From an uncultured Clostridium sp. (GTDB lineage: Bacteria; Bacillota; Clostridia; TANB77; CAG-508), in NCBI GenBank assembly GCA_964394545.1, contig CAYMXX010000001.1, positions 3,088 through 67,087 of the forward strand: a DNA stretch of 64,000 nucleotides. The letters run 5' to 3'. Positions within the stretch are counted from its first letter, which is position 1. Each line of letters starts with the position of its first letter. This document shows, piece after piece, positions 48,352-51,902 of this stretch. A model generated the notes under the pieces. It saw nothing but the letters and a program-made list of their open reading frames with translations, ran no database searches and was not told where the DNA came from. The translations under genes and the position numbers were made by a program.

Positions 48352-48667
48352 CCTCCTCTAAATCAATGTCTGTCATCATTGCCAAATATTCTATATCAGC
48401 CTTTGTTTTTATTTTATCTAGTTCATCTGCAGATAATTCTCTTAATATAAAATAATATCCATTTTCATAATGAACTATTTGTACTAATTCCATGTGTTCA
48501 AATTCTTCAGAAGTTTTTTGAGTTTCGTTTTCAATTATAACTTTTGATAATTTTCCTTCAAAATCTTCTTCTGTTATTTTTGTTTTAGAAATATAATTAT
48601 TTCCACTTAATTTTAAGTCTTTAAGTTGTGTTCCATCAGCCAATGTAATTTTGAATGATTCTTCCAT
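48347..48667 (-). CDS. XkdW-like hypothetical protein
   Basis: 106 aa, synteny in PBSX-like lysis region. Confidence 0.3.
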   Translation of the reverse strand: MEESFKITLADGTQLKDLKLSGNNYISKTKITEEDFEGKLSKVIIENETQKTSEEFEHMELVQIVHYENGYYFILRELSADELDKIKTKADIEYLAMMTDIDLEEV

Positions 48668-49785
48668 TTTACCCTCCTTCTAAATAAGTCATAGTATAAT
48701 TGATACATATTACTTATTTGCATTTTTGACATAATTTTATAGTTACTAGACATCCAACCTTTGAATATATTTTCTATATCCTCAATTGTTATTTTATTTT
48801 TATCTAGTAATCTTTTATAGGCTTTTAGTTTTCGCCTTTCTCTTGTTATTGCTTTTGGATTTATCTTTTTTATAATTCTTCCTGTTTCTGTTAATGAATA
48901 ATTAATTTGCAAGACCTTATATTGCTGTGATAGCTTTGCAATTCTTGTTTTTTTATCATTTATCACTAATCCTAATTCATCAGCTATTTTCTTAATATTT
49001 CTTAATACATCTTTTAGAAATTCTTTATCTTCGTGAATAATATAACTATCATCTGTGTATCTGCCATAGTATTTACATCCTCTTACTATTTTTATATAAT
49101 TATCTATTTTTGATGGATATGAAATACCAATATTTTGTGATGGCTGACTTCCTATATCTACACCTTTTCCGTTTTTATTATCTATATTAAATACATCAAA
49201 TAAGTTTTTTAAAATCCACAAAGTAATTTGTGCTTCTTCTTTGTTAGTTTTCCTTAAAAAATATTCTAAATTTTTCAAACATAATTTATGAGGGATACTT
49301 GCATAATATCCTGAAAAGTCTATTAACAATATATATCCCTCATTACTTTTATGTTTTCTATAATATTGGTGTAAATGTATTTCAAATCTTTTTCTATGAA
49401 AAGCTACACCTTTATTTTTTTGACTTGCTCCATTATCATAGATCAAGTATGGAGTAATTGCAGGAGTTAGTACTTCATCACACATTAAATGATTTATAGT
49501 TTTATCTATCATATTATTTGTTGTAATATGTCGAATTTTCCCTCTTTCATTTAATGTGAATTTAGTTCCTTTTATTGGCTTGTACTCACCATTTTTTAGT
49601 GCTTGCAAAAGTTGTGCTGTTTCTAATAAATGGTTCATTTCAAATAATTGTGCCTTATACTTAAAAGGTGCTCCTTTTATAGCCTTTGTTCCTGCTTCAT
49701 ATATTTTATTAGCATCATAATAAACATTCATAAAAATCACTTTTATAGTATTACTGGACTTATCCAAATACATAATGATTAGCAT
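48613..49785 (-). CDS. DGR reverse transcriptase RT2
   Basis: YGRYTDDSYIIH (YxDD), DGR motif IGSQPSQ, N-terminal EMNHLLETAQLLQALKNGEYKP matches Brt N-terminus; likely true start MNVYYD. Confidence 0.85.
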   Translation of the reverse strand: MLIIMYLDKSSNTIKVIFMNVYYDANKIYEAGTKAIKGAPFKYKAQLFEMNHLLETAQLLQALKNGEYKPIKGTKFTLNERGKIRHITTNNMIDKTINHLMCDEVLTPAITPYLIYDNGASQKNKGVAFHRKRFEIHLHQYYRKHKSNEGYILLIDFSGYYASIPHKLCLKNLEYFLRKTNKEEAQITLWILKNLFDVFNIDNKNGKGVDIGSQPSQNIGISYPSKIDNYIKIVRGCKYYGRYTDDSYIIHEDKEFLKDVLRNIKKIADELGLVINDKKTRIAKLSQQYKVLQINYSLTETGRIIKKINPKAITRERRKLKAYKRLLDKNKITIEDIENIFKGWMSSNYKIMSKMQISNMYQLYYDLFRRRVKWKNHSKLHWLMEHNLKT

Positions 49786-49877
49786 TTATCAATTTTCTCA
49801 AATTGAAGGGATAACCTTTCCTTTCCTTTTCCCATATCCATACGATGAAATCTTGTTCATATAAAATGTATGGGTTG

Positions 49878-49972
49878 TGAAATCAGGACGGACACCGTTC
49901 GAATTAGCTGCACCGTTGTAGTTAGCATTACCATTGTTGTTGACATTAGCGAAGTACGAAGAAGAAACCACA
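49878..49972 (-). repeat. DGR template repeat TR2
   Basis: ~95 nt about 86% identical to 50642-50736; all 13 mismatches are TR plus-strand T (coding-strand A); TR encodes AAT/AAC-rich ANVNNNGNANYNGAANSNG. Confidence 0.8.
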
Positions 49973-49987
49973 TGCAAAGGTTACCCA

Positions 49988-50500
49988 CTATTTTTTTATA
50001 TTTTTTAAAAATCTATTGTCAGTTTGTCGAAGTGACTTAATCATATTAAATTCTTTTTGAATTTGTAAAACTAGATTCATATACTTATTTAAATCAGCAT
50101 ATAAACATTCTCCTGCATATTGAAGTTCATCTTGTAAGGCATTACAACAAGCCATTGCTCTGTCCATTTCTAATCGCCTTTCTTCAAATTCCGACATATA
50201 TGTAGGGAATATTGTGTTTGCAATTCTTAAATGTCTACTTATTCCAGTTGCTAGTTCTATTACATTATTTGAAACTCTAGTTATTTGATTTCTATAAAAT
50301 TTATACATATTTTCTTTTATTCTTTGTTGTTCTTTTTCTTCAAGTCCTTTTACTCTTTCTGCAATTCTATTTTCAATTTTAGAAAAAGTTATATAAAAAT
50401 TATTTTCTGCTAAATTTGTTACAGCCATTCTAATCGCATAAGCACCATGTATAACTTCTAATTTTGATTCTGACCTTTGACTTTTCTTTATATCCGACAT
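49988..50500 (-). CDS. accessory variability determinant (Avd)-like helical protein
   Basis: 170-aa basic helical protein between target gene and TR, canonical DGR position. Confidence 0.5.
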   Translation of the reverse strand: MSDIKKSQRSESKLEVIHGAYAIRMAVTNLAENNFYITFSKIENRIAERVKGLEEKEQQRIKENMYKFYRNQITRVSNNVIELATGISRHLRIANTIFPTYMSEFEERRLEMDRAMACCNALQDELQYAGECLYADLNKYMNLVLQIQKEFNMIKSLRQTDNRFLKNIKK

Positions 50501-50599
50501 TGCTAATAATACTATTTACTCCTTTTTTTGTTTTTCGTTTCAAATCATATCATATTTTTTATATAATTTTAACTGCATTGAAAAACAGCTATTTTTTAT

Positions 50600-50620
50600 G
50601 ACAGGGCATAAAGCCCTGTC
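50600..50620 (-). promoter_or_regulatory. GC hairpin GACAGGGC-ataaa-GCCCTGTC 11 nt 3' of VR2 gene stop (DGR cis element)
   Basis: perfect 8-bp stem in AT-rich context at canonical position downstream of VR. Confidence 0.55.
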
Positions 50621-50630
50621 TGATGCCTGA

Positions 50631-51902
50631 TTAGTAGATTAGGAAAGCAGGACGGACACCGTCCGAACTAGCCGCACCGCTGGAGCCAGCAACACCACCG
50701 TTGTTGACACTAGCGAAGTACGAAGAAGAAACCACACTCCTTAACCAGTACCAAAATCTTTCTCCATTATCATTTCTTGCAACTGTAAAATCATGTCTTA
50801 ATCTGAATAATGATAATTGAGATTTATCTATTTCATAATTATTTGGTAAGTTAGTACCACACAGAATATTGTGCCATATATTACTTCCATATACCATACA
50901 TTCATTCATTAATTCTATATCACTATCATACCAAGTTCCACCAGATTCATAATTACCTGTAACTGCATTTTGTAAGTGATTTCTATGTTTCAATATATGA
51001 CCTGTTCCAAAATCGTTTTTAATTACTGTTTTAAATGGTTCTAAATTTGTTGTGTACATTTTACTTCCAACATAAGCTCCAGTTGTAACATGAGATTCAT
51101 TCATTTGTGCTGTTCCCATTATTCTTTCAGGTATCATTAAAACATGTGGTGTTTTACATTCAGTATCTCCCATATTTAATCTATAATTAATGTCAGCTAC
51201 TAAATATTTTCTTTTACTTACTTTTCCTATGATATAATCTCCAATGAAAATATCGTCAAATGTTCCTGCTGCAATTTGTTTTGACAATGTTCCATCATAG
51301 AATAAATCAGTTATGTCTTTTCCTCTATAAATACTATTATGTGCTCCTGAATTTGAAGCAACAACAATTGATTTTAAATCACTAAATTTTGCATCATAAT
51401 CATTTTTTAATTCATCTGCTTTTTCATTTAACTCTTGTTCATTAACATATACTGTGCTTGGATCTACAGTAATTGTTACATTATTTGCATTATCTACTGT
51501 AATAATCATATCATAGTAATGTTCTTTCTTTTCTGTTATAGAATTATTTATATATTCCGCTTCTGAACCATAATTTATATATGCAAATAATATTTCTTGT
51601 TGTGTATCAGGATCAATAGCAAATAATCCTAATTCTCTTAAATAAAAACTATCTTCAGCATCAGTATTTTTAAAAAGACCTCTAACAGTTACTTGTGTAT
51701 CTGTTTCTCTTTTGATTTTTGTTATATCAAAAGTTAATTTTTTATCAACTAATCCTGTCAAAGCTTTTATTGTATCCACACTATCGTCTGCAATTTCTCC
51801 ACTACCAATCGCAAACTTTGAAAAAGATAATGTTTTTGATTGTAATGTTTTAGCTGCTAAAATTGCACCTTGTGTAGTTATATAAGTTATTCCATAAGCC
51901 AT
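50631..51902 (-). CDS. tail fibre protein (DGR target), tail-collar fibre N-domain + C-lectin-like C-domain
   Basis: N-terminus paralogous to 1891-3723 product (ITxxGAxLAAKTLQ..LGLFAIDPDT..YINNSITE); VR at C-terminus. Confidence 0.8.
   Translation of the reverse strand: MAYGITYITTQGAILAAKTLQSKTLSFSKFAIGSGEIADDSVDTIKALTGLVDKKLTFDITKIKRETDTQVTVRGLFKNTDAEDSFYLRELGLFAIDPDTQQEILFAYINYGSEAEYINNSITEKKEHYYDMIITVDNANNVTITVDPSTVYVNEQELNEKADELKNDYDAKFSDLKSIVVASNSGAHNSIYRGKDITDLFYDGTLSKQIAAGTFDDIFIGDYIIGKVSKRKYLVADINYRLNMGDTECKTPHVLMIPERIMGTAQMNESHVTTGAYVGSKMYTTNLEPFKTVIKNDFGTGHILKHRNHLQNAVTGNYESGGTWYDSDIELMNECMVYGSNIWHNILCGTNLPNNYEIDKSQLSLFRLRHDFTVARNDNGERFWYWLRSVVSSSYFASVNNGGVAGSSGAASSDGVRPAFLIY
50642..50736 (-). 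repeat. DGR variable region VR2
   Basis: 3' end of fibre gene; cognate of TR2; encodes VVSSSYFASVNNGGVAGSSGAASSDGVRPAF. Confidence 0.8.

Follow-up and report, generated by a model that had tools for sequence, protein, structure and literature searches.

Evidence for a complete BPP-1-type diversity-generating retroelement in a prophage of a gut Clostridia bacterium

Does the minus-strand cassette that links a phage tail-fiber gene to a reverse transcriptase (RT) gene in this DNA form a complete diversity-generating retroelement (DGR), and is it still at work? An earlier note proposed a full element with the components variable repeat (VR), hairpin, Avd, template repeat (TR) and RT in the window, i.e., in the whole 64-kb stretch of DNA that was analyzed. 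We found every component named there, and each of them passed the tests applied. The locus is very probably a complete BPP-1-type DGR in a siphovirus-like prophage whose host is a low-GC gut Clostridia bacterium. The element is apparently working and represents an ordinary case of a well-known system; its only unusual part is the helper (accessory) protein, which is standard in shape but not in sequence.

Organization of the locus, its repeats and the target gene

The components are arranged on the minus strand in the order target gene, VR, GC hairpin, accessory gene, TR, structured spacer and RT (Table 1), which is the architecture of Bordetella phage BPP-1. The cassette is flanked by tail genes (tape measure, 600-aa tail protein) and by XkdX-like, holin and endolysin genes, and its RT, accessory and target ORFs are all intact. 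Related RT loci come from uncultured gut Clostridia genomes, in line with the earlier assignment of the prophage to a Clostridium type. It should be mentioned that two ORFs take the place of a single endolysin gene, and partial defectiveness of the prophage is therefore possible. A search of 50,697 phage records with the DNA of the locus as query gave no match, and no Rfam family was found in positions 48000–52500 at E ≤ 1. A promoter scan was uninformative in this 27%-GC DNA, with fewer sites than in shuffled controls.

Table 1. Coordinates of the DGR components in the window
Feature	Position	Strand	Description
DGR reverse transcriptase	48613–49731	minus	372 aa; IGSQPSQ at 49135–49155; YTDD at 49048–49059
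TR-RT spacer	49732–49878	minus	147 nt; DGR RNA 3' segment analogous to BPP-1 Sp
RT-proximal spacer stem-loop	49736–49779	minus	Covariation
Invariant purine tract	49815–49833	minus	Within spacer
First spacer stem-loop	49831–49874	minus	Recovered by single-sequence folds
TR	49879–49972	minus	22 adenines; 9 AAY codons in VR frame; end IMH*-like, ...GGTGTCCGTCCTG-ATTTC
Accessory gene	49988–50500	minus	170-aa basic all-helical bundle protein; between VR and TR
GC-rich inverted repeat	50600–50620	.	8-bp stem, 5-nt loop; 22 nt downstream of VR
IMH-like 3' end of VR	50631–50660	minus	GC-rich GGTGTCCGTCCTG (50648–50660), then CTTTCCTAA, unlike TR version
VR	50643–50736	minus	Target residues about 389–420; 94-nt ungapped TR match
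DGR target gene	50631–51902	minus	423-aa tail fiber or receptor-binding protein; N-terminus Phage_tail_fib, C-terminus DUF6273

The TR and VR were aligned at an offset of 764 over 94 nt, with 13 mismatches. All 13 fall on TR adenines (T on the plus strand, A on the coding minus strand), and the hypergeometric probability of this result, given 22 A among 94 bases, is p = 1.7e-10. The confinement of mismatches to TR adenines thus withstood realignment. The coordinates reported earlier for the TR (49878–49972, 95 nt) gave the right pattern but not the right count: the extra position is also a T-vs-G mismatch, so that the 95-nt alignment contains 14 mismatches rather than 13, and this off-by-one leaves the pattern unchanged. 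In-frame translation (TR, ...ANVNNNGNANYNGAANSNG...; VR, ...ASVNNGGVAGSSGAASSDG...) reproduced the peptides stated earlier. The TR lies between the stop of the accessory gene and the RT and is crossed only by a spurious 59-aa ORF. It retains all its AAY codons, in which no substitution of an A can create a stop codon. No second or remote VR-like copy was found in the 64-kb window. The changes from TR to VR in this copy comprise 10 A>G, 2 A>C and 1 A>T; this bias toward G (10/13) can be compared with the family-wide spectrum of 53% G, 27% T and 21% C.

Both repeats contain the 13-nt GC-rich block GGTGTCCGTCCTG, upstream of which 21 adenines of the TR are located, and homology is lost soon after a difference in the next base. 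In the window, in every related pair compared and in Acutalibacter phage Fontainebleau, the TR has A at this position, while the VR has C. Because this difference (GAT in the TR, GCT in the VR, residue 419) is fixed across the related pairs compared, the last mismatch is, judging from these alignments, a difference at the IMH/IMH* boundary and not a mutagenesis event. Thus, the 13 adenine mismatches regarded earlier as a hallmark of mutagenesis do all lie on A, but one of them belongs to the boundary. The 3' end of the VR differs from the IMH* of the TR and is preceded by the GC-rich element, as in an IMH, and its role in homing is putative.

The GC hairpin, GACAGGGC-5 nt-GCCCTGTC, has the loop TTTAT, not GRNA, and a folding energy of −12.2 kcal/mol (z = −3.3). 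Hairpins were revealed at the same position in all related loci, with different stem sequences, i.e., with conservation of the structure; the canonical location of the hairpin, as proposed earlier, was borne out. Hairpins after the VR have been described for phage DGRs, and BPP-1 requires one downstream of its VR (PMC3240598). By analogy, the inverted repeat in the window is probably the target-recognition hairpin or cruciform of the DGR.

A distance of 12 nt (4 codons) separates the end of the VR from the stop of the target gene; together with the Phage_tail_fib N-terminus of the product, this agrees with the claim that the VR encodes the C-terminus of a phage fiber. Comparison of 120 target homologues revealed entropy peaks at residues 395, 398, 400–402, 404, 406–408, 412 and 414, which are the AAY/TAC codons of the TR. 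At residue 395 (TR codon TAC), only S, C or F replace Y among the close homologues listed, which is what TNC predicts from TAC. Target proteins 96–97% identical to that of the window differ from it mostly inside the VR. A contig in SRR14160763 codes for a target protein with no difference from that of the window. The C-terminus has a weak Pfam match to DUF6273, already published as a DGR target domain (PMC11792537, PMC10743442), and this match and the published work suggest the 'lectin-like' character ascribed to it. In the AF2 model of the full target the C-terminal domain was too poor to test a lectin fold, and no PDB sequence was matched when the target was searched as a profile.

Reverse transcriptase and spacer RNA

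The RT matches Pfam RVT_1 (E = 1.1e-12) and PHROG 1423 (E = 8.7e-47). Both motifs attributed to it earlier, YxDD and IGSQPSQ (of the [LIV]GxxxSQ type), are present. Its best PDB match is 8ub7_A (phmmer E = 5e-6), the RT chain of an entry titled 'Diversity-generating retroelement (DGR) ribonucleoprotein reverse transcriptase', which we took to be the BPP-1 bRT from the cryo-EM paper; bRT is thus the closest solved relative. The bRT residues F66, R74, I76, D138, I181, G182, Q187 and D215–216, including the fingertip residues, are conserved in the alignment. Pfam and NCBIfam hold no curated DGR-RT HMM, so clade membership rests on the motifs, the match to bRT and the related RT loci with TR/VR pairs. 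Scores against the NCBIfam models of other RTs were 57.4 bits for group II intron RT/maturase (TIGR04416, cut-off 300), 43 for Drt3a (cut-off 200), 30 for retron St85 (cut-off 235) and 29 for Drt5 (cut-off 550).

The spacer is conserved even where the RT of the related locus is just 41% identical to that of the window. Its RT-proximal stem-loop is 99% paired, with compensatory changes in 11 of 15 pairs, and none of 500 shuffles reached the observed score. Since the first 18 codons of the long RT ORF (49732–49785) lie within this covarying stem-loop, the RT starts at 49731 and not at 49785. The covariation is evidence that a structure corresponding to the RT-proximal stem-loop of BPP-1 exists in distant DGRs, and the conserved, covarying spacer RNA fits the RNP model of bioRxiv 10.1101/2023.10.23.563531. 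As for a TR:spacer priming duplex comparable to TR117–129:Sp47–56 of BPP-1, only a 4-bp UUUC:GAAA pairing could be drawn, which would join the GATTTC sequence to the purine tract. Both sides are invariant, which puts the pairing beyond the reach of covariation, and to regard it as the priming duplex is speculation.

Accessory protein

The gene between the VR and the TR had been called Avd-like, a description supported by the fold, charge and position of its product; no Avd sequence model matches it. The protein has the four-helix-bundle fold of bAvd. Its pI is 9.2 (mean of its own family 9.0 ± 0.25), and the reported pI of Avd is 9.5 ± 0.7. Its gene immediately precedes the TR, and the protein is small and basic, although at 170 aa it is longer than Avd (about 110–130 aa). 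Compared with the Avd/23S-rRNA-intervening-sequence family (PF22296 bAvd, PF05635) it is about 50 residues longer, and it differs from the bAvd family in an inserted helix (residues 39–50) and an extended helix 55–95.

Neither PF22296 nor PF05635 matched the protein at E ≤ 10, and the same was true of 57 diverse members of its family (0/57 matched either model). In hhalign comparisons the family was not significantly similar to a 32-sequence Avd profile (probability 2.7%, E = 0.017) or to one Avd sequence. The 57-sequence family profile gave only chance matches in the PDB, with no Avd chain among them, and phmmer with the protein itself gave only a chance match to chorismate mutase. No match was found in Pfam, NCBIfam or PHROGs, and the family as a whole is outside the coverage of these collections. 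It should be mentioned that proteins of the CH1 class (Wu et al., 2018) are of similar length (160–169 aa) but acidic (pI about 4.7), and assignment to this class was rejected on charge.

The family comprises 513 cluster representatives at 50% identity, and all members seen are annotated as 'hypothetical'. A more novel but less probable reading is that the protein represents a large unannotated class of DGR accessory factors sharing only the bundle fold with Avd and possessing an extra helical insertion. If this is true, it would be a fifth accessory class beside Avd, HRDC, MSL and CH1, and it might assemble or contact the DGR RNA otherwise than the pentameric bAvd does. Pipelines relying on Avd sequence models would then call these Firmicutes prophage DGRs accessory-free. 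The 'hypothetical' proteins of 160–260 aa beside these RTs can be recognized as structural Avd analogues, which would improve DGR annotation.

Activity, relatives and proposed mechanism

A TR/VR pair was revealed in all 29 related RT loci examined, with A-specific mismatches in 28 of them. In the 29th (L021) the pair was found by hand only; this locus has undergone rearrangement: its TR unit is duplicated, and its VR contains a 1-nt indel. The TRs of related loci are conserved, while their paired VRs are divergent. Four groups of loci have identical TRs and a different VR in each locus, and 197 of 200 VR-VR differences are on TR adenines. This natural variability and the A-specific VR differences indicate that the lineage is active in nature, and the close relatives with identical TRs but different VRs indicate that it diversifies on short time scales. 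From its sequence, we infer that the copy in the window is active too. Three observations speak against a complete working element of the BPP-1 type: the accessory protein fits no Avd sequence model, the substitutions in this copy are biased toward G, and the endolysin gene is split.

Alternatively, this copy might be a fossil DGR, with recognizable parts but no further diversification, in which the TR/VR differences reflect past ancestral activity. The two-ORF endolysin nearby hints at prophage decay, and one relative, L021, has a rearranged cassette with an indel in the VR. However, in the window all three ORFs are intact, catalytic and motif residues are present, the TR keeps every AAY codon, and the spacer RNA elements and the hairpin are undamaged. 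Moreover, the lineage is diversifying on short time scales, as seen from the identical-TR relatives, and nearly identical target proteins differ mostly inside the VR. Decay of the element is thus improbable, and we favor a working DGR.

Still less probable is that the 170-aa protein is not the DGR accessory factor and that its gene, a phage gene of other function, is located by chance between the VR and the TR of an accessory-free DGR, like architecture A of Wu et al. The last alternative considered, that the RT is part of a different retroelement or defense system (group II intron, retron, DRT or Abi) and that the 94-nt repeat arose independently by duplication of the tail-fiber 3' end, is effectively refuted. 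The weak NCBIfam similarities listed above could be cited in its favor, but none of them comes near its curated cut-off, Rfam detected no RNA of an intron or retron, motif 4 is of the DGR type (IGxxxSQ), all mismatches are on adenines, and the RT is linked to an A-mismatched repeat in nearly all related loci. The reading as a BPP-1-type DGR is therefore retained.

Comparison with BPP-1 (mtd-VR-hairpin-avd-TR-Sp-brt) revealed that the two elements are alike in: (i) gene order, orientation and the position of the VR at the 3' end of a tail-fiber gene; (ii) a GC-rich IMH-type element with a TR-specific variant and a GC hairpin downstream of the VR; (iii) an accessory gene immediately before the TR, encoding a basic helical bundle; (iv) a structured TR-RT spacer of about 140–150 nt ending in a long stem-loop beside the RT start; and (v) an RT with [LIV]GxxxSQ, YxDD and equivalents of F66, R74, I76, I181 and Q187. 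At the same time, the RTs are only distantly related, as seen from the match to 8ub7_A, and the accessory protein of the window contains an additional helical segment and does not match bAvd in sequence. The loop of the hairpin has 5 nt instead of the 4-nt GRNA of BPP-1, the RT-proximal stem-loop is capped by a tetraloop instead of a heptaloop, the target C-terminus is DUF6273 and not Mtd, and the host is a low-GC Clostridia bacterium.

DGR targets containing DUF6273 are known from the Faecalibacterium prophages Lelie, Roos, Pioen and CP11, where the VR is at the C-terminus of the domain (PMC11792537), and from the 'tentaclin' phages nd4 and nd12 (PMC10743442). These are likewise phages or prophages of gut Firmicutes; their RTs are homologous to that of the window but only about 31–33% identical (tblastn), and the target described here has a Phage_tail_fib N-terminal domain instead. 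Fontainebleau (ON453893.1), which was induced as a prophage from the OMM12 mouse consortium, is the closest deposited phage; its RT is 48% identical. Its cassette is similar: a target with VR and a 184-aa accessory protein 46% identical to that of the window, upstream of holin and amidase genes, with the TR ending in GGATTTC and the VR in GGCTTTC. It differs in the host genus and in the shorter target (311 aa). The deposited record labels both its accessory gene and its target gene as hypothetical, and the paper naming the phage makes no mention of a DGR.

By analogy with BPP-1, the following mechanism can be proposed. The RNA transcribed from the end of the accessory gene through the TR and the 147-nt spacer would fold into a structure to which the RT (372 aa) would bind together with the Avd-like protein (170 aa), the latter as an oligomer. 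Synthesis of cDNA would be cis-primed and begin upstream of the fixed A, within the GC-rich sequence at the TR 3' end, and the RT would misincorporate opposite template adenines, leaving the A-specific pattern observed. Retrohoming, presumably directed by the IMH-like element and the downstream GC hairpin, would then replace the VR at the 3' end of the tail-fiber gene with the cDNA. As a result, about 11 codons (nine AAY, one TAC and the third position of one GCA) would be randomized at the surface of the DUF6273 C-terminal receptor-binding domain, and the phage would obtain a large repertoire of receptor specificities, with a probable effect on host range.

These results leave the current understanding of DGRs unchanged and add one more well-resolved case of receptor-binding-protein hypervariation in temperate phages of gut Clostridia. 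The gain is that the IMH boundary, the hairpin, the spacer RNA elements and the corrected start of the RT have been cleanly mapped in a DGR lineage of Firmicutes; with phage Fontainebleau as its cultured relative, this lineage could serve for experiments. The nine AAY codons and the TAC codon would give a repertoire of the order of 10^11 protein variants, with which the phage could track changes in the host surface.

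Template repeat, variable repeat and target gene

All features of the diversity-generating retroelement (DGR) in the window lie on the minus strand. In an ungapped comparison (offset 764), the template repeat (TR) and the variable repeat (VR) align over 94 nt with 13 mismatches, and all 13 fall on a plus-strand T of TR, i.e., on a coding-strand adenine. With 22 adenines among 94 TR bases, the probability that 13 random mismatches would all hit A is 1.7e-10. An earlier note, made from the sequence alone, had confined the mismatches to such adenines, and realignment bore this out; its 95-nt span, however, contains 14 mismatches and not 13, the extra one (49878/50642) also being T versus G.

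Coordinates of the main features in the window
Feature	Position	Strand	Remarks
TR	49879-49972	-	VR-frame reading VVSSSYFANVNNNGNANYNGAANSNGVRPDF
VR	50643-50736	-	in-frame reading VVSSSYFASVNNGGVAGSSGAASSDGVRPAF
Target gene	50631-51902	-	423 aa; Phage_tail_fib N-terminal domain, weak DUF6273 C-terminal match
GC hairpin	50600-50620		8-bp GC stem, 5-nt loop; 22 nt beyond end of VR homology
RT-proximal stem-loop	49736-49779	-	directly before ATG at 49731; 99% paired (14 sequences)
Second stem-loop	49831-49874	-	directly after TR; single-sequence folds
Purine tract	49815-49833	-	invariant; 46-64 nt into spacer
Endolysin, amidase catalytic part	46950-47411	-	153 aa
Endolysin, SH3/cell-wall-binding part	46451-46948	-	165 aa

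TR contains nine AAY codons, the classic stop-free design of DGRs, and VR ends four codons upstream of the stop of the target ORF. No additional VR-like copy was revealed in a search across the whole window. Since TR keeps the VR reading frame open, a 59-aa ORF (49798-49977, minus strand) spans it and reaches into the spacer; this ORF is a by-product, which would wrongly be called a gene. A similar "hypothetical protein" is annotated across the TR of Acutalibacter phage Fontainebleau.

The GC-rich block GGTGTCCGTCCTG is common to TR and VR and is directly followed by A in TR (GAT) and C in VR (GCT). The window, phage Fontainebleau and every related pair compared all show this same fixed difference, and nearly all of 120 homologues have Ala at target residue 419. 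The sequences therefore suggest that it is no product of mutagenesis but the first difference between IMH and IMH* (the VR and TR 3' end elements), marking where information transfer ends on the 3' side. Without it, the genuine substitutions number 12, out of 21 adenines that can be transferred. The GC hairpin, indeed present at the canonical position noted earlier, occurs at the same place in all related loci with differing stem sequences. It is thus conserved as a structure, like the one in Bordetella phage BPP-1, in which structure and not sequence is required (PMC3240598); unlike the GRNA tetraloop reported there, its loop consists of 5 nt and is not GRNA.

The assignment of VR to the C-terminus of a tail fibre agrees with its position, the Phage_tail_fib domain and strong PHROG tail-fibre matches of the target. 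Targets that combine DUF6273 with a C-terminal VR have been described before, in Faecalibacterium prophages (PMC11792537), and published modelling gives DUF6273 a C-type-lectin-like fold; our own structure model of this domain was of low quality and too weak to confirm the fold.

Variability in the lineage

Across the 120 natural homologues nearest to the target, column entropy reaches about 3 bits in a set of residues (395, 398, 400-402, 404, 406-408, 412 and 414) that coincide exactly with the AAY/TAC codons of TR; the G, A, V and R positions between them hardly vary, with entropy near zero. Homologues with 96-97% overall identity to the target in the window differ from it mainly within VR. 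At residue 395 (TR codon TAC) only S, C or F replace Y among the close homologues listed, in agreement with the TNC prediction.

A search with the reverse transcriptase (RT), one genome per species, yielded 30 loci, nearly all of them in genomes of uncultured gut Clostridia; one (L030) consists only of a C-terminal RT fragment, and another (L013) has its upstream region truncated by the contig end. The TR/VR pair was looked for in 29 loci, and in 28 of them the mismatches were A-restricted (359 substitutions at A versus 8 others). VR differed in every locus of the four groups with identical TRs, with 197 of 200 pairwise differences at TR adenines. Together, these observations speak for a lineage that is active in nature.

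The 29th locus, L021 (CANOVB010000012.1; RT 65% identical), also contains a TR/VR pair but is rearranged, and its VR shows a 1-nt indel when compared with TR. At 4380-5003, a unit running from the accessory-gene end through TR into the spacer, of which it includes the first half, occurs twice in tandem. In the upstream copy, G, C or T stand at positions that are A in the RT-proximal TR, but the TR-type end, GATTTC, is preserved; it looks as though a copy that had undergone mutagenesis became fixed at a site resembling a TR.

Reverse transcriptase, spacer RNA and accessory protein

The RT ORF matches RVT_1 and PHROG 1423, and its best solved relative is 8ub7_A, which we take to be the BPP-1 RT (bRT) in the DGR ribonucleoprotein. 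Both motifs noted earlier, IGSQPSQ and YxDD, are present and align with IGSLTSQ and YMDD of bRT (YTDD in the window); equivalents of the bRT fingertip residues F66, R74 and I76, and of D138 within IDFSGY, are also kept. Similarity to group II intron, retron or DRT RT models was far below their cut-offs, and Rfam found no intron or retron RNA. The longer version of the ORF has 390 aa, but the covarying RT-proximal stem-loop occupies its first 18 codons, which are therefore RNA structure; RT thus starts at ATG 49731 (372 aa). Its last 18 codons overlap by 55 nt (48613-48667, minus strand) the next gene (48347-48667, 106 aa), which is without family match and has a strong ribosome-binding site, GAAGGAGGG, within the RT coding sequence.

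The 147-nt spacer between TR and RT is conserved even where RT is only 41% identical. In the RT-proximal stem-loop 11 of 15 pairs show compensatory changes, a signal approached by none of 500 shuffles and by no slid control; it is positioned like the stem-loop that bRT binds at the 3' end of the BPP-1 spacer RNA (bioRxiv 10.1101/2023.10.23.563531). The second, candidate stem-loop, recovered in most relatives with differing helix sequences, occupies the place of the Avd-binding stem-loops reported directly after TR (same source). One may speculate that the purine tract, which lies near the position of the priming strand in BPP-1, corresponds to it. The Lachnospiraceae loci L022-L029 (Blautia, Waltera and others; RT 41% identical) are distant relatives in which the invariant spacer motifs, GATTTC and GGAAAGGAAAG, recur together with the covarying RT-proximal stem-loop, and their spacers have an additional insertion of about 20 nt; their accessory proteins, of the same family, have 198-205 aa.

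The accessory protein is basic, like Avd (pI 9.2; family mean 9.0), whereas the CH1 class, of similar length, is acidic. It belongs to a large family, with 513 representatives when clustered at 50% identity; every named member seen carries the label hypothetical. The bAvd and PF05635 models matched none of 57 diverse members, and profile-profile comparison with a canonical Avd alignment was not significant (probability 2.7%). Therefore, fold, charge and position justify the earlier description "Avd-like", for which the sequence gives no support. This longer, sequence-orphan Avd-like family is the sole mildly novel element of the DGR.

Prophage context and relation to known systems

The cassette is carried in a siphovirus-like prophage, in DNA of about 27% GC, with genes for the major head protein, the tape measure protein and a 600-aa tail protein upstream, and an XkdX-like gene, holin-like genes and an amidase endolysin downstream. 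The endolysin (46451-47411) consists of two abutting ORFs with only a stop codon between them; it may be a lysin made in two parts, or it may have been split by a nonsense mutation, a sign of prophage decay. An integrase (43505-44773) and a CI-like repressor (42470-43000), both on the plus strand (42470-44773), point away from this prophage and probably belong to a second one at about 1-42 kb (1-41000, minus strand), which would make two tandem prophages with a junction near 45-46.4 kb.

The earlier claim of a complete element stands: target, VR, hairpin, accessory gene, TR and RT are all present in the BPP-1-type layout. This avd-TR-RT order is architecture B1, the BPP-1 paradigm (Wu et al.), and the motifs and cis elements of the locus likewise agree with BPP-1. 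The locus is almost certainly a DGR, genuine and complete, and probably an active one.

The closest deposited phage, Fontainebleau (L032, ON453893.1; RT 48% identical), has the same cassette (1716-4538), with A-specific TR/VR mismatches and a long Avd-like gene whose product is 46% identical to that in the window; the record labels both its target gene and its accessory gene hypothetical. Fontainebleau is a cultured, inducible OMM12 prophage whose naming paper does not mention a DGR; it could serve as a model for experiments on DGRs of this lineage.
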